Shown one piece after another: positions 26,626-38,953 of a DNA stretch of 64,000 nucleotides. Numbering within the stretch: position 1 is the first letter of the stretch; each line of letters starts with the position of its first letter. Source of the stretch: Spirochaetota bacterium (GTDB lineage Bacteria > Spirochaetota > UBA4802 > JAFGDQ01); the NCBI GenBank assembly GCA_043803405.1, contig JAZDKB010000043.1, positions 38,829 through 102,828 of the forward strand. The letters are read 5' to 3'. Both the position numbers and the translations under genes were made by a program. The notes under the pieces are model-generated. The model worked only from the letters and a program-made list of their open reading frames with translations. It searched no databases and was not told where the DNA came from.

Positions 26626-27819
26626 ATGATACCGATAAAAATTGTTGATGGTCGCAGCGGGAAAAAAAACGTACAATCCTGCTGTGAGAATACTCAAAGC
26701 AGCTGTTCGCAGCCAGTCGATACAAGTACAAAAATTCAACTGCCTTTACATTTTGAAGCTATAGAGAAAAAACCTGAGTGGGTGTTGAGCATGGTTAATA
26801 CGCCTGCAGGACAGATTCCGCTGGTAAGCCCGGAATGGTCGAAGGCAGATCGCCGGGGATGCTTACGTTCGCGGCTCGGAGCTTTCCGCATGAGTTACAG
26901 CATACAGCCGGGCCTGTATGCGATCGGGTCTCCGGATGCCGGTTCGGACGTGTTCGTAAGCGCGAACTACAAACTGAGCTTCGATGTGCTGCGACGCAGT
27001 CTTGACGGATTAAGCGGATGGATTCTTGTGCTCGACACAAAAGGGATTAACGTATGGTGCGCCGCAGGCAAGGGCACTTTCGGTACAAATGAACTTATAA
27101 AGCAAATTATAAATACGGGGCTTGCTAAAATTGTTTCCCACAGAAGAATTATTGTGCCTCAGCTTGGAGCAGTCGGGGTTAAAGCTGCGGAAGTAAAAAA
27201 AGAGACCGGTTTTAATATTCTGTTCGGACCGGTTGATGCAAAAGACATTAAAGAATATCTGAATTTAAAATATAAAGCATACCAGGAAATGAGAAGAGTA
27301 AAATTTTCCGTATTTAAAAGACTTGAGCTTACGCCCATTGAACTGTATCCTGCTCTTAAAAGATTTCTGTGGGCTGCGCTTATAATCCTTTTACTGTTTG
27401 GATTTGAACCAACAGGAATAATATTCCGGACTGCCTGGTTAGAGGGATGGCCATTTCTTTTGCTGTGCTTTGTGAGCATTCTTACAGGCGCATTTATTGC
27501 GCCTGTGCTTCTTCCGTTCATTCCGTTCAGGTCTTTTGCAATAAAGGGAATAATTACAGGATTGACAGCAGCGATACCGCTTGTGTATTTTAGTCCCGTA
27601 TTCGGATATGATTCCGGTTTTGTTAAGGTATCGGCTGTGTTGCTGGCAGCTACCTTATCTTCATATCTGGCTTTGCAGTTTACCGGTGCAACCACATTCA
27701 CAGGTATTTCGGGCGTAAAAAAAGAACTCAAACTGGCTTTGCCGCTTTACATAGCCGGAATAGCTATATCGGTAATTTTAATAGTGATTTATAAAATAAA
27801 ATCCTGGGGTATTATATGA
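26626..27819 (+). CDS. hgcA: Mercury methylation corrinoid protein HgcA
   Basis: Cap-helix motif GINVWCAAGKGTF (Cys codon TGC), PGLYAIG, ANYKLSFD, C-terminal TM domain ending FTGATTFTGISGVKKE. Confidence 0.98.
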   Translation: MIPIKIVDGRSGKKNVQSCCENTQSSCSQPVDTSTKIQLPLHFEAIEKKPEWVLSMVNTPAGQIPLVSPEWSKADRRGCLRSRLGAFRMSYSIQPGLYAIGSPDAGSDVFVSANYKLSFDVLRRSLDGLSGWILVLDTKGINVWCAAGKGTFGTNELIKQIINTGLAKIVSHRRIIVPQLGAVGVKAAEVKKETGFNILFGPVDAKDIKEYLNLKYKAYQEMRRVKFSVFKRLELTPIELYPALKRFLWAALIILLLFGFEPTGIIFRTAWLEGWPFLLLCFVSILTGAFIAPVLLPFIPFRSFAIKGIITGLTAAIPLVYFSPVFGYDSGFVKVSAVLLAATLSSYLALQFTGATTFTGISGVKKELKLALPLYIAGIAISVILIVIYKIKSWGII

Positions 27820-28118
27820 CTTATCTTAAAAGCGTAACAACGCTTGTTTATGATCCCGGAAAATGCACAGGCTGCGGTCGCTGTATTGAAGTTTGCCCGC
27901 GCGAAGTATTCGTGATGCGCGACAAAAAAGCTGCGGTCACAGATAAAGACCGGTGCATGGAATGTGGCGCGTGCGCACTTAACTGCGAATTCGGCGCGAT
28001 TACGGTAAACGCGGGAGTTGGCTGCGCAGCTGCAGTTATCCACAGCATACTTAAAGGCGGAGAGCCCGTATGCGGGTGCAGCAGCGAAAGCAGCGCAGGC
28101 AATGCCTCATGCTGTTAA
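27816..28118 (+). CDS. hgcB: Mercury methylation 2[4Fe-4S] ferredoxin HgcB
   Basis: CTGCGRCIEVCP, CMECGACALNC, GVGCA, Cys-rich tail ending in CC; ATGA overlap with hgcA. Confidence 0.97.
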   Translation: MTYLKSVTTLVYDPGKCTGCGRCIEVCPREVFVMRDKKAAVTDKDRCMECGACALNCEFGAITVNAGVGCAAAVIHSILKGGEPVCGCSSESSAGNASCC

Positions 28119-28130
28119 AGGAATAAAGCT

Positions 28131-28484
28131 ATGGCTACGGGAAAAAAATTACATCCGCAATATGAGGCGCGTGCAAATATAATTAAGGCGATCGGTCATC
28201 CGACAAGGCTTTTTATAATTGAAGAGCTATATAAGGCTGAACATTGCGTTAACGAGCTGACGAAAATGATAGGCTCCGATGTTTCAACTGTGTCCAAGCA
28301 TTTAAGCGTACTTAAGAGCTCAGGGCTTGTAACAGATGAGAAGCGCGGAACAAGCATCTATTATAAACTCCGTACGCGATGCATTATTGATTTTATTGAT
28401 TGTATTGAAACAGTTATTAAAACAAAGGCTGAGGATGACATGCAGATCGTACAGTGCTGCGGGAGAAATTTTAAAATAAAATAG
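28131..28484 (+). CDS. arsR: ArsR/SmtB family transcriptional regulator
   Basis: KAIGHPTRLFII, CVNEL, STVSKHLSVLK, C-terminal CIIDFIDC...CC. Confidence 0.9.
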   Translation: MATGKKLHPQYEARANIIKAIGHPTRLFIIEELYKAEHCVNELTKMIGSDVSTVSKHLSVLKSSGLVTDEKRGTSIYYKLRTRCIIDFIDCIETVIKTKAEDDMQIVQCCGRNFKIK

Positions 28485-28589: not shown

Positions 28590-28907
28590 ATGCTGGGAAT
28601 ATCGGATTCTGCCGTAAAACAATTTAAACAAATTCTTGAGGATTCGAATGCGTCCAAATCAGGAATACGTATTTTTATGTCCGGCCAGAGCTGCTGCGGG
28701 GTTTCATACGGCATGGGCATAACTGAAAATGGAGACAAAAACGACCAACTGCTGGAAAAAGATGGTCTGAAAATTTTCATTGATTCTGTAATTTCCGAAG
28801 GCCTTTCAGAAGCAACTATCGATTTCAATCAGCAGGGCTTTGTGATACAGGGAAATCCTTCATCAGGATGCTCATCGGGATGTTCATCCGGAGGATGCTG
28901 TTCGTAA
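28590..28907 (+). CDS. HesB/IscA-like Fe-S assembly accessory protein with Cys-rich tail
   Basis: ISDSAVKQFK..GIRIF..SCCGVSYGM..D..DGLKIFID..ATIDF..GFVI. Confidence 0.8.
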   Translation: MLGISDSAVKQFKQILEDSNASKSGIRIFMSGQSCCGVSYGMGITENGDKNDQLLEKDGLKIFIDSVISEGLSEATIDFNQQGFVIQGNPSSGCSSGCSSGGCCS

Positions 28908-29063
28908 ATAGTGAAAAACTAATTACTCTGGTAATATTATACGGTTTTCAATATAATTTAGAGCAGTTTAGAGTAACAAATATTATTTCATCGGCTACTA
29001 TTATTCAAAAATAAAATAATATAAGCTGGAGAAAACAAAGTGAATACTGATAGGAGATTAGTT

Positions 29064-29390
29064 ATGTCGCCGCAAATAAATCAGTGGGTTCGCCCTGCCT
29101 GAGACCGCCCGGAAGGCTGAGACCACTCAGCTGATGAATACCGTGTAGTATTCTTCCCGGACGGGTCAAAGACAGGACTAATAGGTTTAAACGCTTTATT
29201 TGAAGACGCTTACTTTGAAGGCAGGAAACCGGATAAGCTATTAGCAAAAGAAATAGTAAAGAAGCTGTCCGAAAGAAATTATGTTCCTCCGAACAGCATA
29301 AATGAATACGAATATATTGTTAATAGTCTCTATGAAGAATATTTCGAAGTAAATGAACGCAATAAAAAGGATGCCTTGAAAGAGAAGTAG
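29064..29390 (+). CDS. Candidate selenoprotein with two in-frame UGA (Sec) codons, 108 aa
   Basis: AGGAGA RBS; reads MSPQINQWVRPA-U-DRPEG-U-DHSADEYRVVFFPDGSKTGLIGLNALFEDAYFEGRKPDKLLAKEIVKKLSERNYVPPNSINEYEYIVNSLYEEYFEVNERNKKDALKEK*. UGA at 29100-29102 and 29118-29120; alternative in-frame GTG start at 29040. Confidence 0.72.
29133..29156 (+). promoter_or_regulatory. Bacterial SECIS-like hairpin
   Basis: GA-T-GAATAC-CGTGTA-GTATTC-T-TC; the apical loop starts 21 nt after the second UGA and has GU near its 5' side. Confidence 0.55.
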
Positions 29391-29608: not shown

Positions 29609-30613
29609 ATGTTTATATTCGGGTGGTTAAATAATCAGCTTTTAAGAATGGAATGGCTATCCAGCCTGACGAAAATACTGGTAGAAAATGTATTTGGTCT
29701 AAGTATGTCAGAAAGGATTGGAGGCAGCATACATTTTTTTATATATGATGTTATCAAAATATTTATTTTATTATCTGTATTGATATTCTGTATTTCATAC
29801 GTGCAAAGTTTTTTTCCGCCCGAGAGGACGAGAAAAATACTGGGAAAATATAATGGCCTAACGGCCAATATATTTGGTGCGCTATTTGGAACAATAACAC
29901 CTTTTTGCTCTTGTTCTTCAATACCTCTTTTTATAGGGTTTACCAACGCAGGACTCCCTATAGGTGTTACCTTTTCGTTTTTAATATCCTCTCCCCTTGT
30001 CGATCTGGCATCGTTAATTTTAATTGCCAGTATATTCAACTGGAAAATTGCGATTGCTTATGTGTTTGTTGGGCTTATACTTGCTGTTATTGGCGGAACC
30101 ATTATAAGCAGGGCGAAGCTGGAGAAATATGTAGAGCCTTTCGTTTTCAGTAATAAAATGGCAGATATAGAGCAGGAAAAATTGACTGCCAGGGACAGAA
30201 TAAATTTTGCGAAAGACCAGGTAAGGGACATTGTAAAAAGAGTCTGGATGTATATCCTCATAGGAGTCGGGATCGGGGCTGCTATTCATAACTGGATTCC
30301 TGAAAGTGTGATTTCAATGGTGCTTGGCAATGATAAATGGTATTCAGTGCTTGTAGCAACAATCATAGGTATTCCGATGTATGCTGATATATTTGGCACT
30401 TTGCCTATTGCAGAAGCCCTGGTTTTAAAAGGAGTAGGACTTGGAACAGCATTATCTTTCATGATGGCAGTTACGGCGCTTTCACTTCCTTCAATGATCA
30501 TGCTGAAAAACGTAGTCAAAACAAAATTATTAGTAATATTCTTCGGCGTTGTATCAATTGGAATAATAATCATTGGATATGTTTTTAATATTTTTGGAAA
30601 TTTGTTAGTGTAA
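29609..30613 (+). CDS. ArsP/DUF318-family permease
   Basis: TPFCSCSSIP, FLISSPLVD, GIPMYAD, ALSLPS motifs. Confidence 0.9.
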   Translation: MFIFGWLNNQLLRMEWLSSLTKILVENVFGLSMSERIGGSIHFFIYDVIKIFILLSVLIFCISYVQSFFPPERTRKILGKYNGLTANIFGALFGTITPFCSCSSIPLFIGFTNAGLPIGVTFSFLISSPLVDLASLILIASIFNWKIAIAYVFVGLILAVIGGTIISRAKLEKYVEPFVFSNKMADIEQEKLTARDRINFAKDQVRDIVKRVWMYILIGVGIGAAIHNWIPESVISMVLGNDKWYSVLVATIIGIPMYADIFGTLPIAEALVLKGVGLGTALSFMMAVTALSLPSMIMLKNVVKTKLLVIFFGVVSIGIIIIGYVFNIFGNLLV

Positions 30614-30715: not shown

Positions 30716-30949
30716 ATGAAAAAAATAGAAATTCTCGGGACCGGTTGTGCTAAATGTGAAAAGCTTGAAGATCTCGTCAGAAAAGCCGCAGGTGAAATTG
30801 GTGTTGATGCCGAAATTATTAAAGTTAAGGATATTAAAAAGATAATGGAATATGGAGTCATGACAACGCCTGCGCTTGTGGTGGATGGTGAAGTTATGGT
30901 TGCGGGAAGAGTGCCATCCATCGAAGATGTAAAAAAATATATCAAATGA
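30716..30949 (+). CDS. Small redox-active disulfide protein (MTH895/thioredoxin_3 type)
   Basis: IEILGTGCAKC, YGVMTTPALVVDG. Confidence 0.92.
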   Translation: MKKIEILGTGCAKCEKLEDLVRKAAGEIGVDAEIIKVKDIKKIMEYGVMTTPALVVDGEVMVAGRVPSIEDVKKYIK

Positions 30950-31044: not shown

Positions 31045-31572
31045 ATGAAGTCTTTAAAAAGGTTCGCAGTTTTTTTTGTCATAATCGCCTTTGCCCTTAT
31101 AGCTGGCAACGTAGAACCCGATCATTCATCTAAATGCGGCTTCGAAACATCATTCCCATTTTCTCTTTTCACAAAAATATTTGAAACTGCGGCGGAGAGT
31201 CCTGCCGGCGATACTCACAGACATGAAACAGATGGAGCAGCTTCCCTTCTGGGCGCTGTTGCATACGCGCAGAAAAAAGCCGCGAATATAAAAGTCACGT
31301 TTATTGAACTCGGTTCGGTCAACTGCATTCCGTGCAGAATGATGCAGCCTGTAATGAAGCAGGTTGAAGAAAAATACAGCGATCAGGTTAAAGTCATTTT
31401 TTATGATGTATGGACGGAAAATGGACGACCATTTGGGCAAGTATACAAAATCAGGGCAATTCCCACGCAGATTTTCCTTGATTCTAATGGAAAGGAATAC
31501 TTTCGTCATGAAGGATTTTATCCCTTTGAGGAACTTGAAAAAATACTGAAAAAGGGCGGCGTACGCCGATGA
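31045..31572 (+). CDS. Exported thioredoxin family protein
   Basis: Signal peptide; ELGSVNCIPC, IRAIPTQIF, RHEGF. Confidence 0.88.
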   Translation: MKSLKRFAVFFVIIAFALIAGNVEPDHSSKCGFETSFPFSLFTKIFETAAESPAGDTHRHETDGAASLLGAVAYAQKKAANIKVTFIELGSVNCIPCRMMQPVMKQVEEKYSDQVKVIFYDVWTENGRPFGQVYKIRAIPTQIFLDSNGKEYFRHEGFYPFEELEKILKKGGVRR

Positions 31573-32288
31573 TACTTGATTTTTTCACAGCGCTTTCGAA
31601 CATGCTTTCTTCTTCACCCGGTATAGCGCTTACGGGATCAGTTCTATGGGGCATAGCGAGCATAATACTGTCTCCGTGCCATCTCGCAAGCATTCCGCTC
31701 GTGGTCGGCTTTATCGATAAGCAGGGGCAGATAACAACAGGCAGGGCGGCAGCGATATCCAGCCTGTTTTCCTTCGGCATTCTTATCACAATTGGACTGG
31801 TAGGCGTGATTACAGGCATACTTGGAAGAATGCTGGGCGATGTTGGGCAGTACGGAAATATCGCAGTGTCTGTTATTCTGATAATTATAGGCATGTACTT
31901 GACGGGCATTATCCGCCTTCCTTTTCTTGAAAACGGAATAAACCAGCCCGGCTTTAAAAAGAAGGGCCTTATTGCGGCATTTTTTTTGGGTCTTATATTC
32001 GGGCTCGCGCTGGGGCCCTGCACATTCGCTTATATGGCTCCGATGCTTGGGGTTGCATTTAACGTAGCGTCAACAAACCTCGGTTATGCTGTGGCGCTTG
32101 TTGCTGCGTACGCATTAGGGCATTGCTCGGTCATAATAATCGCGGGAACATTTACCGAGACTGTAAATCACTTGCTCCGCTGGAACGAAAACTCAAAAGG
32201 CGCGCTTATTGTTAAAAAGATATGCGGAACCCTGGTGATCATAGCAGGCATTTATATGATGATAACTTCAGTTAGAACATTTTATTAA
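31569..32288 (+). CDS. ccdA: CcdA/DsbD-beta family disulfide transporter
   Basis: LSPCHL and GPCTF conserved Pro-Cys motifs; multi-TM. Confidence 0.85.
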   Translation: MILDFFTALSNMLSSSPGIALTGSVLWGIASIILSPCHLASIPLVVGFIDKQGQITTGRAAAISSLFSFGILITIGLVGVITGILGRMLGDVGQYGNIAVSVILIIIGMYLTGIIRLPFLENGINQPGFKKKGLIAAFFLGLIFGLALGPCTFAYMAPMLGVAFNVASTNLGYAVALVAAYALGHCSVIIIAGTFTETVNHLLRWNENSKGALIVKKICGTLVIIAGIYMMITSVRTFY

Positions 32289-32315
32289 ACTAAAACATGC
32301 TTAAACGAAATATTT

Positions 32316-33566
32316 ATGAAAAATAAATCTAATATATTTTCATGGATAATAATAACGGCTTCGCTTGCCGGTCTTGCTTTGAGCGTGCTTTTGATCTTCG
32401 AATATTTCGGCGTATCGCCTGCCGCAGCCGATGCTGTATGCTCTCGCGGGCGCGGAGGCATTAATGCGTGCACCATTGTTTCGGCAAGCCGCTTCGCTGC
32501 TTTGAGGGGAGTGCCGCTCATTGGCGATTTACCTGTAGCAGTTTTTGGATTTGTATTTTACGGCTTTATTGCAGCGCTTGTCATTTTACAATTTTTCCGG
32601 AAAAACAGCAATGATACACTTCAAATGCATGCCGTCATTTTAGTTCTGTCAGTAGCAGCTCTTCTAAGCGATATCTTTCTATATTTTATTTCCATATTTA
32701 TAATTAAGTTCGTCTGCCCTCTCTGCATTATGACTTACGCAGCAACAGCGGTCATACTGTTATTTTCGATTATACTGGTTAAGAGCAGTAAAGATTCTGC
32801 AGAAGGATCATTTATCGAAAAAATGAAAGATTATCTTAGAAAAGAAATCCTGCTATTCGCAGTTATCGCTGTTGCTCTCGCAGCAGCCGGAATAAGCATT
32901 GGCGTAAGCGCGCGCATGATTGCGCAAACAAAGGAATCCTCGACTTATGAAGAACGATTGAAAGGCGCCATACGCCGGTACGAAACTGCAAAGGCCGCTA
33001 CTATTGATTTAAAAAATAGTATCTATACCGGCAAACAGGATGCCCCTGTAAGTTTCGTTGTATTCTTTGATTTTACTTGCAGCCATTGCAGCGAAGAAAT
33101 GCTGATACTTGAAGACCTGTTAAAAAAATATGAAAATGCTATTGCAATTTCATTTAAAAATTTTCCATTGAACGGAGACTGCACTGAACTCGAAAACAGT
33201 AAAGCAGACAGCGATGCAGAAAGTTGCATTGCTGCTGCAGCAGGTTTATGCGCGGACCGTCAGGGAAAATTCATGGAATATGCAAAACTGCTTTTTAAGA
33301 ATTATCATAATGAAAAGATCGGTTTTACAAAAAAATCGGTACGGAACGCAGCTCAGACAGCAGGCTTAAACATACTGGGTTTTGACACCTGCTTTTTATC
33401 AAAAGAGATAAAAGACCAGCTGTTGCTGGAAATAAAAGAAGCAGAAAAAATCGGGGTAGAGAGTACTCCGGCTATATTTCTCAATGGAAGACTATTGGCC
33501 GGAAAATCCCGCAAAGCGGATATGCTCGAAGGGCTGGTGCAGTATTGCCTAAAAAGAAATAAATAA
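32316..33566 (+). CDS. VKOR-DsbA fusion protein
   Basis: VKOR loop Cys pair (VCS..NAC), CPLC; DsbA domain DFTCSHC, FPL, STPAIFLNG. Confidence 0.88.
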   Translation: MKNKSNIFSWIIITASLAGLALSVLLIFEYFGVSPAAADAVCSRGRGGINACTIVSASRFAALRGVPLIGDLPVAVFGFVFYGFIAALVILQFFRKNSNDTLQMHAVILVLSVAALLSDIFLYFISIFIIKFVCPLCIMTYAATAVILLFSIILVKSSKDSAEGSFIEKMKDYLRKEILLFAVIAVALAAAGISIGVSARMIAQTKESSTYEERLKGAIRRYETAKAATIDLKNSIYTGKQDAPVSFVVFFDFTCSHCSEEMLILEDLLKKYENAIAISFKNFPLNGDCTELENSKADSDAESCIAAAAGLCADRQGKFMEYAKLLFKNYHNEKIGFTKKSVRNAAQTAGLNILGFDTCFLSKEIKDQLLLEIKEAEKIGVESTPAIFLNGRLLAGKSRKADMLEGLVQYCLKRNK

Positions 33567-33599: not shown

Positions 33600-34649
33600 A
33601 TGTCCGATTCAGTAACAAAAAAACTTTCTTTTCTTGACCGTTATTTAACTCTATGGATATTCCTTGCCATGGCAATAGGCGTAGGACTTGGATATTTTGT
33701 TCCTTCAACCGCAGCCTTCTGGAACCAGTTCCAGAGCGGCACAACCAATATCCCCATTGCTATTGGCCTTATACTCATGATGTACCCGCCTCTCGCAAAA
33801 GTAAAGTATGAAGAGCTCGGTGACGTATTCAGAAACTGGAAAATACTTCTGCTGTCTCTCGTGCAAAACTGGATAATTGGGCCTGTGCTGATGTTCTTTC
33901 TTGCAATCACCTTCCTTGCCGGATACCCGGAATATATGGTAGGCCTAATAATGATAGGCCTCGCGCGATGCATCGCAATGGTAATAGTGTGGAACGAACT
34001 CGCGTGCGGAGATACCGAGTACGCAGCAGGGCTTGTCGCATTTAACAGCATTTTTCAGGTACTTTTTTTCAGCGTGTATGCTTGGTTCTTCATAACAGTA
34101 CTGCCTCCGATGTTCGGGCTTAAGGGCAGCGCAGTGGACATTACAATAGGCCAGATCGCGGAAAGCGTCTTTATTTATCTCGGTATACCTTTTATTGCAG
34201 GAATAATCACGAGATTCACGCTTATCAAATTAAAAAACAAAGTATGGTATCACTCAAAATTTATTCCCAGGATAAGCCCGATCACCCTTATAGCGCTTCT
34301 GTTTACGATTGTCGTTATGTTCAGCCTCAAAGGCGAATACATAGTAAAAATACCCATGGACGTTGTACGCATCGCAATTCCGCTTTTAATATATTTTATT
34401 GTAATGTTTCTGTTAAGCTTTTTCATGAGCAAAAAAGTCGGAGCCGATTATCCGAAATCAGCTACCCTTTCTTTCACTGCGGCAAGCAACAACTTTGAGC
34501 TTGCAATAGCAGTAGCTGTCGCTGTTTTCGGAATCAATTCGGGAGCTGCTTTTGCCGCAGTTATAGGCCCGCTGGTTGAAGTCCCTGTGCTTATCGGGCT
34601 TGTGAATGTGGCGCTGTATTTCAGAAAGAAATACTTTGCAAAGGCTTAA
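33600..34649 (+). CDS. acr3: Arsenite efflux transporter Acr3
   Basis: [49 protein letters not shown]. Confidence 0.97.
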
Positions 34650-34919: not shown

Positions 34920-35663
34920 ATGGAACTTATTCACGCTGACGATTTAAAAAAGAATTACCCTGTAGGCGAAATAACCGTATCCGCGCTAAAGGGCTTGAGT
35001 TTCTCGATTGAGACTTCTTCGTTTATTTCGTTCGTCGGGCCTTCAGGAAGCGGCAAGACCACGCTTCTCAACATTCTCGGCTGTCTCGATACCCCGACAA
35101 GCGGAAATGTCCTGATAGACGGAACCGACATTTTAAAACTAAACAGAAATGAAAGAGCTGATTTTCGCGGGCAGAATATAGGTTTTATTTTTCAGGATTT
35201 TAACCTTATGCCGGTGCTCACTGTTTTTGAGAATATTGAATATCCGCTGATAATGATACAAAACGTGCAAAAGGATGAACGTATAAAACGCGTCAGCAAA
35301 CTCCTTACTGAGGTCGGGATGGAAGATCAAAAGGACAAGTACCCTGACCAGATATCCGGCGGGCAGAAGCAGCGCGTGGCCATCGCCCGCGCCCTCGCGA
35401 CAAATCCGAAAATAGTGCTCGCGGACGAACCCACTGCCAACCTCGACCATGAAACCGCTTACAAGGTCATCGGGATCATGAAAAAAATGAAGGACGAGTT
35501 CGGCACTACTTTTATTTTTTCCACTCACGACCAGAAAATAGTCGGCGAGGCAGAGATAATTTACACGCTTGAAGACGGCCTGCTGACAGGGAGAAAGGTT
35601 ATCACGCGAAAGAAAGTAAAGAAACAATCGATAGGAGGGAAAGCTCATGCAAAGCATAATTAA
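34920..35663 (+). CDS. ABC transporter ATP-binding protein (LolD/MacB-like)
   Basis: [41 protein letters not shown]. Confidence 0.93.
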
Positions 35664-36882
35664 AATAGCCCTTCGCAACCTTATACGCTATAAACGCCGC
35701 ACCATATTGACAATGTCCCTCATCAGCATAGGAGTTGTTTTCGTAGTGTTATATATAGCGGTTTCAGGATCATTTAAAAGCCTTATAATCGGACAGATCA
35801 CGGATTCAATGCTCGGCCATGCACAGATACACAGAAAGGGATTTGTTGCCTCAATAGACAATCTGCCTCTTAATCTCACCCTTAACATGCAGGAGTACAG
35901 TGTAATTGAAGACATATTAAAAAATCAGAAAAACGTGGAAGCTTATTCCCCGCGCGTAAAGCTGGGAGGCATGTTCAGCAATTTTGCTGAAACAACAAAT
36001 ATACGGCTTAACGGAATATATCCGGAAAAAGAATTTAAAACAACGCCGTTGCTCCCAAAAAGAATTATCAAGGGAAGCGCGTCTCTTAATCGCGGAGAAA
36101 TACTCATCCCCGAGCTTTTAGCGCAGGGCATGAAGGTGAAGCCCGGCGGTCAGGCTGTTATTATCGCAACGAACAGGGACGGGTCCGTGAACGGGATGCA
36201 ATTTACCGTTTCAGGCATACTAAGCAGCGTTGTGGGGACTGGCGGCCGGGACGGATACATTAATTTTGACGATGCGGTTGAACTCCTCCGTATGGAAAAG
36301 CCCGAAGTCAGCGAGATCGCGATCCGCCTTAAAGATTTTAACAAACTCGGGGATTTTGAAAAGTACATAAAAAAAACGATCATGGGGCTTACGAGTGACA
36401 AAAAACCGGTTTACGAAGCGCATACATGGGAAGGCCTTTCACCTTTCGTGAACATTGCGAACATGGTGGATGTAATGACTTTTTTTATACGCATAATGCT
36501 CATCGCAATAGTGCTTATAAGCATAATGAACGTAATGACAATGGCGGTTTATGAACGGATAAGAGAGATAGGAACAGTGGCAGCCATAGGCACAAAGCCT
36601 GGGAAAATACTTTTAATGTATCTCACTGAAAGTTTCTTTCTTGGGATTGCCGGCTCCGTTACAGGTATAATTCTCGGTTTTATTATAATAGCAATAATAA
36701 ACGCCGTCGGAGTGACATTTGACTTCGGCAGGCAGGAAGGCCTTGTAATACACGCTTCCCTCGGAGCTATTCAAAGTATTGTTATAATGTTAACTGTTCT
36801 TATTGTTTCCATTGCCGGAGGGTTTTACCCTGCATATAAAGCATCCATGATGGAACCGGTCGAAGCCCTGAGGCACGTATAG
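35647..36882 (+). CDS. ABC transporter permease (LolE/FtsX-like)
   Basis: IALRNLIRYKRRT, MAVYERIREIGT, YPAYKAS.MEPVEALRHV. Confidence 0.92.
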   Translation: MQSIIKIALRNLIRYKRRTILTMSLISIGVVFVVLYIAVSGSFKSLIIGQITDSMLGHAQIHRKGFVASIDNLPLNLTLNMQEYSVIEDILKNQKNVEAYSPRVKLGGMFSNFAETTNIRLNGIYPEKEFKTTPLLPKRIIKGSASLNRGEILIPELLAQGMKVKPGGQAVIIATNRDGSVNGMQFTVSGILSSVVGTGGRDGYINFDDAVELLRMEKPEVSEIAIRLKDFNKLGDFEKYIKKTIMGLTSDKKPVYEAHTWEGLSPFVNIANMVDVMTFFIRIMLIAIVLISIMNVMTMAVYERIREIGTVAAIGTKPGKILLMYLTESFFLGIAGSVTGIILGFIIIAIINAVGVTFDFGRQEGLVIHASLGAIQSIVIMLTVLIVSIAGGFYPAYKASMMEPVEALRHV

Positions 36883-36910
36883 CATATTGTATTTTCGGAG
36901 GACGCCATAT

Positions 36911-37642
36911 ATGAAAAAAATAATTCTGTCTTTAATAATACTACTTGCAGGCATAAGCCAGGTTAAAAGCGAGGACAATGAAGGTCTTCTTCGCGAGATA
37001 GACAGAAACCTTAACCCGGACTCTTATGAGTCATTGCGAAAGATCGTAAACATTGAACCCGACGGACGGAAGAAAGAGTACGTTCTATTCAGCCTTAAAA
37101 AAGGCACAGATAAAGTGATAGCTCTCTTCTTATCGCCCGCAAGCGATAAAGGGAGAAGTACTCTCCGGCTTGGAGACAACATGTGGCTTTATGTTCCCAA
37201 TGTAGGAAAACCCATCCGCATCACATCCCTTCAGTCCGTTATTGGCGGAGTATTCAATAATGCGGATATACTCGCGCTGGATTACAGCGCCGAATATAAT
37301 GTCGAAAAACTTGAAGAAAAAGGCGGACAGTATATTCTTAATCTCAAAGCAAAAAATAAAACCGTTGCTTATGACCGGATTCGTTTATGGGCGGATAAAG
37401 AAAAGAAATTACCTGTAAAAATAGAATGCATGACTGAAAAAAGCATGCTCATTAAAACCCTTACTTTTAAAAACATAAAAGACTTCGGGGGCGGAATAAT
37501 AAGGCCGTCGGTAATAGAGACAACAAGTCCTTTGTATAAAGGGTACAAGTCTTTGATGATTTTTTCAAAGATCAAACAAAGGACGGTCAAAGATGAAGTG
37601 TTCACGCTGTCGTTCATGCCCCGAGTGGAATCTTTGAGATAA
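36911..37642 (+). CDS. Outer-membrane lipoprotein-sorting (LolA-like) protein
   Basis: GGAGG RBS; MKKIILS signal; FLSPASDKGRSTLRLGDNMWLYVP. Confidence 0.8.
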   Translation: MKKIILSLIILLAGISQVKSEDNEGLLREIDRNLNPDSYESLRKIVNIEPDGRKKEYVLFSLKKGTDKVIALFLSPASDKGRSTLRLGDNMWLYVPNVGKPIRITSLQSVIGGVFNNADILALDYSAEYNVEKLEEKGGQYILNLKAKNKTVAYDRIRLWADKEKKLPVKIECMTEKSMLIKTLTFKNIKDFGGGIIRPSVIETTSPLYKGYKSLMIFSKIKQRTVKDEVFTLSFMPRVESLR

Positions 37643-37645
37643 ATA

Positions 37646-38953
37646 ATGAAATCTTTGTATGTCCTGTGCACATTCGTCCTTTTCTCTTTCATGGGAACAT
37701 TTTTATACGCTGAAGAAAACGCGGATTATGATTTCAACGATACGGAATTCGAAAAGAAGTTATTTTCTTTCGCCGGTTATTCAGAGTTTTTCCCTTCGCT
37801 TTTTATCGCGGACAGAAAGGCCGCACTTTACCGTCTTAAATATCATGACAATGATCCGGGAAATCCGTACGCGGACGCGTACGCAAGGCTGCAGCCCGAA
37901 GCAACACTCGAAAAAGGCATATTCAAGGCATTCGTCAGGGCAAATGGATACGCGGAATACGCTGAAAATGAATGGAATTACGACGCTCTTCTCTATGAAG
38001 GCTATGCCACACTCAAACCGAATGAGCATATAATAATAGACTCAGGGAAAAAAACAATGAAATGGGGCAAGGGTTACGCGTGGAACCCTGCCGCGTTTAT
38101 AGACAGGCCCAAAAATCCCGATGATCCCGAGCTCGCGAACGAAGGTTTCGTTATCGCCTCAACGGACTTTATTTTTAGCTTTAACAGCCCGTTAAAGACC
38201 GTTGCGCTTACTCCGGTTGCAGTGCCGGTATATAAAAAAATCAATGATGATTTCAGCGAAACCGAAGACTGGAACTATGCTGGGAAACTCTATCTGCTTT
38301 TTTTTGATACTGATATCGATATTATGTTCCTCGCGGGTGACAGCAGGGACGACCGGTACGGTGCCGATATTTCCAGGAACATAGGCACAAATTTTGAGAT
38401 ACACGGAGAATTCGCATATATCCCGGATTATACGAAACGTTATTTTGACAGCTCAGGTGTTGTGCGTGAGAAGATATTCAATGCCTCAAGCGTACTCGCA
38501 GGAATCAAGTACCTCACTGAGAAAGAAACTACTTATATTATCGAATATTACTATAACGGCACAGGCATGTCGAAGAACGACATGAAGAATTATTATAACT
38601 TTATTGACAGGGCATATTCCTCATATCTTGAGACCGGCAGTAAAACGCTTTTAAACAAGGCATCCATGATAACAGAAGGAAATTACGGCAAGATGAGCCC
38701 AATGAAAAATTATCTTTATGCCAGAATAAGCCAGAAAGAACCGTTTGATATTCTTTACTTTACTCCTGCACTTTCTTCAATAGTAAACATTGATGATTCG
38801 AGTTTTTCACTGACTCCGGAGTTGCTTTACACGGGTATCAATAATTTCGAATTCAGGTTCAGATACACCTGGCTGTATGGCAATGACAATTCGGAATACG
38901 GGGAAAAGCCCGCGGATCATAAATTTGATCTCCGCATACGCTATTTTTTTTAA
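37646..38953 (+). CDS. Putative outer-membrane beta-barrel protein
   Basis: Signal peptide, GKKTMKWGKGYAWNP, C-terminal aromatic DLRIRYFF. Confidence 0.7.
   Translation: MKSLYVLCTFVLFSFMGTFLYAEENADYDFNDTEFEKKLFSFAGYSEFFPSLFIADRKAALYRLKYHDNDPGNPYADAYARLQPEATLEKGIFKAFVRANGYAEYAENEWNYDALLYEGYATLKPNEHIIIDSGKKTMKWGKGYAWNPAAFIDRPKNPDDPELANEGFVIASTDFIFSFNSPLKTVALTPVAVPVYKKINDDFSETEDWNYAGKLYLLFFDTDIDIMFLAGDSRDDRYGADISRNIGTNFEIHGEFAYIPDYTKRYFDSSGVVREKIFNASSVLAGIKYLTEKETTYIIEYYYNGTGMSKNDMKNYYNFIDRAYSSYLETGSKTLLNKASMITEGNYGKMSPMKNYLYARISQKEPFDILYFTPALSSIVNIDDSSFSLTPELLYTGINNFEFRFRYTWLYGNDNSEYGEKPADHKFDLRIRYFF

Follow-up and report, generated by a model that had tools for sequence, protein, structure and literature searches.

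Comparison with described systems

ArsD is an arsenite metallochaperone with an N-terminal CC motif. It is a putative functional analogue of the protein described here, being likewise small and encoded in ars operons, with a vicinal thiol pair close to its N-terminus. The UxxU metal-binding (seleno)protein (NF041115, a model of 74 positions) is likewise small, has two closely spaced selenocysteines (Sec, U) and has been proposed to bind soft metals (PMC13188914). MbdU and TsoB also contain two Sec residues, and TsoB combines an x4 spacing with a DsbD-like part. HgcA, HgcB and the selenoproteins of the SAO system provide a further parallel, namely, an N-terminal Sec which is hidden from gene callers, is exchangeable with CC and occurs in a heavy-metal context (10.1101/2022.07.06.499078). 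Finally, the MTH895/ArsE thioredoxin (TIGR00412, PF13192) is encoded in the same operons as the protein considered here, and in many Desulfobacterota carries a related domain fused to its N-terminus.

Positions 29064-29390 of the window (the whole 64,000-nucleotide stretch of DNA that was analysed) are a hidden gene, and the selenoprotein family to which it belongs is apparently new, although its general kind is known. The family differs from NF041115 in its variable Sec spacing and in having the Sec pair on a flexible tail, and when three carrier genomes were searched with the NF041115 model (cut-off 95 bits) at E 0.1, the gene was not hit in any of them, including at the homolog positions in G411 and G416. 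The models of MbdU and TsoB span 468 and 572 positions, compared with 108 residues of the window protein, which was matched neither by the MbdU model NF045648 (cut-off 600 bits, ~470 aa), which missed the gene in all three carrier genomes, nor by the TsoB model NF045694 (rhodanese/DsbD fusion); the latter hit only neighbours, weakly, and DsbD-like proteins are indeed encoded beside the window gene. The CC/Se motif family NF041239 (cut-off 40 bits) had a match at the gene in none of three carrier genomes. In contrast to MTH895/ArsE, the window protein stands alone and lacks the thioredoxin fold; TIGR00412 does not match it, and the N-terminal domain shared by the two has no model of its own. 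Compared with ArsD, it has another predicted fold and Sec in place of Cys, no ArsA-like acceptor is found among the 27 recurring neighbours scanned, and the ArsD models PF06953 and NF033727 match neither the window protein nor other members. HgcA, HgcB and the SAO-system selenoproteins are unrelated to it in sequence and have a CU dipeptide rather than paired Sec (10.1101/2022.07.06.499078).

The original prediction could not match the protein to any described family, and this still holds. Scans against Pfam and NCBIfam (June 2026) matched no family model to the window protein, nothing consistent to 71 members (at most three members per weak model) and nothing to four further double-Sec members. 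Table 1 of the 119-family catalogue of May 2026 contains no recognisable entry when compared by domain identifier, size and motif only (PMC13188914). Our literature search did not find a description of the family, which could already be contained in supplements, BSepDB, RefSeq or Haft and Tolstoy 2025. Database proteins of the family are either Cys-type or start after the second TGA and, where named at all, are named only 'hypothetical protein'. Apparently, therefore, this double-Sec family is uncatalogued. Bacterial proteins with two Sec had been called rare; they are uncommon but not exceptional, because by our own count 14 of the 119 families in Table 1 have two or three Sec (PMC13188914). 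What is unusual about the present family is the combination of a nearly invariant Sec pair, variable spacing and an arsenic-operon setting.

A hidden gene with two in-frame TGA codons

The gene lies among genes for mercury methylation, arsenic resistance and thiol redox reactions, with the following features.

26626..27819, + strand: hgcA, N-terminal CC form (NF040863, 397.5 bits, cut-off 275)
27816..28118, + strand: hgcB (NF040864, 117.3 bits, cut-off 99)
28131..28484, + strand: ArsR/SmtB regulator (NF033788)
28590..28907, + strand: IscA/HesB-like protein, Cys form (TIGR00049, PF01521)
29052..29057, + strand: Shine-Dalgarno (SD) motif AGGAGA, 6 nt 5' of the ATG at 29064; a similar SD/start region is aligned in the homolog L077
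29064..29390, + strand: double-selenocysteine protein gene, 108 aa (frame reading and homologs), ending with TAG at 29388-29390
29100..29102, + strand: TGA for Sec13 (U13), counterpart of the first L077 TGA in the alignment; distance to the SECIS loop 39 nt
29103..29117, + strand: 15-nt in-frame insertion relative to L077 (DNA alignment), turning UU into U-x5-U
29115..29132, + strand: additional 7-bp hairpin over the second UGA, beginning 12 nt after U13, loop without the consensus G
29118..29120, + strand: TGA for Sec19 (U19), aligned with L077, 21 nt from the SECIS loop
29133..29156, + strand: bSECIS-like hairpin beginning 12 nt after U19; the core of its stem is at 29136-29153, and the second of the six loop bases is G
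29139..29348, + strand: folded domain, approximately residues 26-95, beta-hairpin and three helices, with conserved G-L, N-Y-x-P and Y..E-Y
29609..30613, + strand: ArsP_1 permease (PF03773)
30716..30949, + strand: unfused MTH895/ArsE thioredoxin (TIGR00412)
31045..33566, + strand: thioredoxin, DsbD_TM (CcdA-like) and VKOR-DsbA fusion (Pfam)
33600..34649, + strand: Acr3 arsenite efflux transporter (TIGR00832, 460.9 bits)

The sequence is exactly as had been noted from it: AGGAGA, six nucleotides, ATG and a 108-codon frame, the only internal stops of which are TGA at 29100 and 29118, with five codons between them. The 89 codons following U19 do not appear in the table-11 list of + strand open reading frames (at least 60 aa; ATG, GTG or TTG starts), consistent with the suggestion that gene callers miss the gene. 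A possible alternative start is a GTG in the same frame, eight codons 5' of the ATG (29040-29042), which has a GGAG motif of its own; comparison with L077 supports the ATG. The bare pattern is no proof of a gene, since 50 frames in the window genome match a start, U-x(0-5)-U and at least 70 open codons, five of them with an SD-like motif. It is the homologs with paired TGAs at the same place that establish the reality of the frame.

The window genome has the complete machinery expected of a Sec user: selD, tRNA-Sec (selC), selA and selB are clustered on contig C26, each above its curated cut-off, and selD carries an internal TGA of its own. All four genes that the original prediction proposed to look for are thus present. 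TGA terminates 322 of the 1682 open frames of at least 900 nt, and is therefore an ordinary stop in this genome, which excludes general TGA recoding. From these observations and the homologs we infer Sec insertion itself; both UGAs of the window gene are almost certainly meant as Sec.

Homologs and conservation of the TGA pair

Pooling both locus sets, and leaving out two further copies from the 301-genome draw described below, there are 67 distinct family genes (window included) with two in-frame TGAs ahead of the same domain. They are spread over Desulfobacterota, Leptospirales-type Spirochaetota and Nitrospirota, and 62 of them have an SD motif and in-frame start upstream. The spacing is x2 in 29 genes, x3 in 27, x4 in nine, x5 in one (the window) and x0 in one (L077). 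Accordingly, U-x5-U, while correct for the window, is a private variant rather than the family pattern, for which U-x2-U or U-x3-U is the norm. Other homologs have CC or CxC at the TGA site, and 11 copies of the family have an extra Cys.

The first locus set came from a GTDB scan, with mainly double-TGA members as seeds (57 loci), and a metagenome scan (three loci). After four duplicate loci were dropped, and with 14 fused and three partial rows uncounted, it held 62 stand-alone copies: 53 with two in-frame TGAs (among them L077, the gene of the window and a pair of near-duplicates), eight with Cys only and one with a single TGA. In the last, in L059 near 7000, a stop codon occupies the expected place of the first TGA and the start; this copy is possibly a broken allele. 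Because the first seed was biased to double-TGA members, we additionally sampled the phylum to which Desulfonema magnum, a cultured carrier, belongs, taking 300 genomes in an even draw with D. magnum itself as the centre. The domain was detected in 67 of these 301 genomes. We inspected 45 stretches around the matches, strongest first; among these best 45, the stand-alone copies comprised 24 double-TGA genes (in 23 genomes), seven Cys-type genes and one degenerate gene, the remainder being ArsE fusions. All 23 carrier genomes encode selA, but this co-occurrence is uninformative, since selA is found in 282 of the 301 genomes anyway.

In the phylum of the window the domain was found in only four of 401 genomes, all within its own family. 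Four of six same-family genomes have the gene, all four with a U-x4-U copy and one also with a C-x3-C copy; one same-family contig (L020) is titled uncultured Leptospirales. Elsewhere, three adjacent paralogs with CC, U-x3-CU and CxC are found in L036:6400-7700 (= L080), and L029 has four paralogs, three Cys-type and one double-Sec. Such arrays suggest specialisation of Cys and Sec forms.

The comparison yields the pattern that the original prediction had looked to homologs for, namely, TGA or Cys at both positions (paired TGAs, with CC or CxC in other homologs) and conservation that begins at the start codon instead of after the second TGA. None of the signs that had been named as speaking against the gene was found: selABCD are not lacking, the two positions are not occupied by residues other than Cys, and conservation is not confined to the part behind the TGAs.

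SECIS hairpins

In the bSECIS consensus a G-bearing loop lies 16-37 nt after the UGA (PMC13188914). The loop of the window hairpin lies within this range for U19, at 21 nt, and is conserved in L077. For U13, in contrast, the distance of 39 nt is just beyond the consensus range and failed the SECIS filter; in relatives, the first UGA is 24-35 nt from the loop. The proposal that a SECIS-like hairpin follows the TGAs is thus borne out for U19, but only with this reservation for U13, and the decoding efficiency of U13 is the weakest link for the window copy. The additional hairpin at 29115..29132 begins at the same offset from U13 as the SECIS from U19 (12 nt); its stability has z −2.6, and four of 200 shuffles fold equally well. 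With the consensus G missing from its loop, it may be at most a non-canonical element. By itself, the window SECIS has no exceptional stability (z −1.1 to −1.3).

Across the family, a hairpin satisfying the SECIS model follows the second UGA in 51 of the 67 double-TGA genes, and 48 of the 67 pass at the first; of the controls, eight Cys paralogs and 300 ordinary TGA stops, the model accepted one and 26, respectively. For the named hairpin, 50 main-clade genes give 84.9% pairing and 21 compensatory cells, the latter compared with 8.4 ± 2.3 after shuffling; these counts are inflated by kinship and coding constraint. When the hairpin position is slid, pairing drops to 15-49%. RNAalifold did not predict a structure common to the main clade.

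Closest relative and origin of the Sec pair

The closest relative, L077, is 50% identical and reads C-Y-U-U at the corresponding place. Its adjacent TGA-TGA (L077:1275-1280) precedes a conserved SECIS, a third TGA sits upstream of the start, and the gene is divergent from arsR-arsC-acr3. In the DNA alignment with the window, the start region and both TGAs are aligned, indicating that both window TGAs were inherited. The 20-nt block 29136-29155, which holds the hairpin, is identical in the two: codons agree in 6/6 cases within the SECIS block as opposed to 18/37 same-residue codons outside it. The 15-nt insertion separating the TGAs in the window looks, in the sequence, like a local duplication. 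The GAC-C(G/A)C context shared by the two TGAs is indeed present, but the argument that had been built on it, the improbability of two independent nonsense mutations, does not stand, as the similar context would stem from the local insertion or duplication and not from two independent events.

In a tree of the core domain, window and L077 (100/96) fall together with eight Cys-type proteins (100/96) and outside the main double-Sec clade. All double-Sec rows are united in 0/200 bootstrap trees; the alignment has only 78 columns, and the bootstrap was not fully settled. The end branch of the window row is longish (0.81). The tree favours a second origin of the Sec pair, but this is only suggested, since the AU test (48 of 112 rows) does not reject a single double-Sec clade (p 0.15).

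Protein architecture and the ArsE fusion

The N-terminus is hydrophilic and, as read from the sequence, has no obvious signal peptide or membrane helix. In the AlphaFold2 model, residues 1-20 have pLDDT 48-56 and are followed by a beta-hairpin and three helices with pLDDT >90. Fold searches gave no clear structural match, which does not make the fold new: the best Foldseek hit had E 0.28 and TM 0.30 and the best VIA-align hit Z 5.9 (rmsd 2.5, 62 aligned), with RRE/PqqD-like and homeodomain-like folds considered. ESM Atlas, queried with a Cys-type homolog, returned nothing at or above 0.8. Designer PPR proteins, retrieved in a PDB sequence search, were rejected as they reflected only summed weak repeat matches.

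ArsE/MTH895 fusion proteins have a homologous domain as their N-terminal part (profile match probability 99.4), in agreement with the statement in the original prediction that a similar small domain is fused to, or lies beside, MTH895-type thioredoxins in anaerobes. There are 29 such fusions in the loci examined, and TIGR00412 matched all four fused paralogs tested. In the window genome itself the domain occurs once, and ArsE is unfused. No long fusions of 304-2000 aa were found, which is weak evidence; ten long open frames considered as new fusions were rejected, all being ArsE fusions plus upstream non-coding sequence.

Genomic neighbourhood and possible function

To describe the family context, we considered approximately 7 kb around 51 double-TGA loci, excluding the window and eight partial, duplicate or Cys-type loci. 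The neighbours include acr3 (28 loci), arsP (17), arsC (15) and arsM (9), with at least one of these four in 36 loci, as well as arsR (29), ArsE-type thioredoxin (24) and CcdA (24). L033 is a minimal arsR-acr3-gene unit amid unrelated genes. In 15 of the 51 loci, D. magnum among them, nearby ars transporters and enzymes are lacking, and the gene immediately upstream is acr3 in just 7 of 50 loci, which counts against a fixed partnership with Acr3. In P. mercurii ND132, arsenic induces an operon arsR-arsP-arsE-DGC (10.1101/2022.10.17.512643). Other proteins recurring near the gene are a PF04060 Fe-S protein (14/51 loci; L066:13247-13816), a DGC-domain protein (8/51; L049:1660-2085) and a rhodanese (8/51; L070:701-1246).

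From the computed anatomy of the gene, the conservation of TGA/Cys and of the hairpin, the Sec machinery, the domain fusion and the neighbourhood we infer a ligand, partners and direction of transfer. The reading that we favour, and to which context and anatomy give about an even chance, is that the protein is a cytoplasmic, high-affinity chelator or chaperone of As(III) or methyl-As(III), that its di-selenol arm is flexible, and that its operons, in anaerobes, are under ArsR control. By binding the hairpin that follows the UGAs, SelB would direct Sec into both of them, yielding a small soluble protein with a flexible N-terminal two-selenol arm and a beta-hairpin/three-helix domain. The Se pair of the arm would capture As(III) (arsenite or methylarsenite) and pass it to Acr3 or ArsP for efflux, or to ArsM, while the co-encoded ArsE/Trx/CcdA relay would keep the arm reduced. 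The domain may then be a carrier module, combined with a CC or UU arm when stand-alone and with the CxxC ArsE thioredoxin when fused. Variable spacing and the extra Cys of some copies appear to accord with a chelating arm rather than with a redox motif of fixed form. Against the chelator model, two ligands do not fill a trigonal As(III) site, the 15 loci mentioned above are without ars transporters or enzymes nearby, and the 27 neighbours scanned include no ArsA-like acceptor.

A serious but rather doubtful alternative is a genuine double-Sec redox relay, the arm of which would cycle between diselenide and selenol and shuttle electrons between Trx/CcdA and ArsC, ArsM or others, as does the CxxC of ArsE. 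Fusion of the domain to the MTH895/ArsE thioredoxin in 29 proteins, the presence of Trx and CcdA in 23-24 of the 51 loci, and the resemblance of the commonest spacing, U-x2-U (29/67), to CxxC all speak for it. However, the Sec pair is not set in a thioredoxin fold, disorder is predicted for the arm, the spacing varies from 0 to 5, and the fusion model consists of two well-folded domains with no fixed mutual orientation (pLDDT 90, pTM 0.53).

It is unlikely that, within a real family, the window copy is decaying or selenium-throttled, with the 15-nt insertion having moved U13 out of SECIS range so that translation mostly terminates. Such a fate would accord with the greater U13-to-loop distance than in relatives, with the occurrence of U-x5-U in only one of the 67 genes and with the longish end branch. 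Yet the insertion is in frame; SD motif, start, both TGAs, SECIS and domain are all intact; and the new 7-bp hairpin stands at the same offset from U13 as the SECIS from U19.

Quite unlikely, too, is a dedicated accessory of mercury methylation, binding Hg(II) or methylmercury and delivering it to, or removing it from, HgcAB. The window gene does lie downstream of hgcAB, both same-genus genomes have hgcA (in one of them 9 kb from the gene), and HgcA and HgcB are themselves sometimes selenoproteins (10.1101/2022.07.06.499078). In the 301-genome draw, hgcA is found in 14 of 23 carriers as against 77 of 278 genomes without a detected copy (Fisher p 0.002), an enrichment confounded by kinship, genome size and the published linkage of hgcAB to ars genes (PMC7438021). 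Nevertheless, hgcAB is near the gene in only 4/51 loci, nine of the 23 gene-positive genomes have no hgcA match, the complete genome of D. magnum among them, and in 77 of the 91 genomes with hgcA no copy was detected; the gene thus neither co-occurs strictly with hgcAB nor is strictly located beside it. Of the partnership with HgcAB/Ars envisaged in the original prediction, the ars part agrees with the operons found, which are mainly of the ars and thiol-redox kind, but hgcAB is not an obligate companion.

A pseudogene, a chance frame or TGA read as Trp or Gly, for which one might cite the 50 comparable frames (five with SD) and the L059 homolog with a single TGA behind a stop, is highly improbable and largely refuted by the conservation of paired TGAs, aligned with Cys, across three phyla, by the use of TGA as an ordinary stop and by the complete Sec machinery.

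Returning to the favoured chaperone reading, its most far-reaching form would be a family of Se-based arsenic chaperones present in ~7% of sampled Desulfobacterota, in which one SECIS decodes two UGAs 0-5 codons apart (including UGA-UGA) and the pair arose at least twice from CC ancestors; we put this forward tentatively, as a composite that is more likely wrong in some part than right throughout. If true, selenium supply would be directly linked to the handling of As(III) in anaerobic sediments and, via shared ArsR operons, to mercury methylation. Irrespective of function, a common, apparently uncatalogued double-Sec family is added to the bacterial selenoproteome, and a recurring unannotated component of anaerobic ars operons can be named. 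As some of these operons also contain hgcAB, the link between arsenic resistance, mercury methylation and selenium gains a concrete candidate gene. The natural spacing series (UU, U-x2-U to U-x5-U) offers a test of how one bacterial SECIS serves two UGAs, a question that bears on the engineering of multi-Sec proteins.

Several further features of the window and its genome may be mentioned. The promoter/terminator scan of the + strand from hgcA to arsP detected no terminator-like site outside coding regions. Two DNA sequencing runs had no reads covering the gene. The window HgcA has an N-terminal CC (TGC TGT, 26680-26685) as opposed to the CU reported for most HgcA, despite the genome being a Sec user, and the hesB-like gene (28590-28907), a Cys form, has a Cys-rich C-terminal tail. 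Downstream of acr3, positions 34920-38953 encode an ABC ATPase and a permease, with homologs in seven and five of 59 clustered loci, respectively (window included). Finally, a motif scan of the window genome (G000) revealed other in-frame TGA candidates with SECIS-like hairpins at C4:209431, C4:215690, C4:218702, C19:16741 and C6:142040, the first three of which look, by their motifs, like FdhA, HdrA and MvhD.
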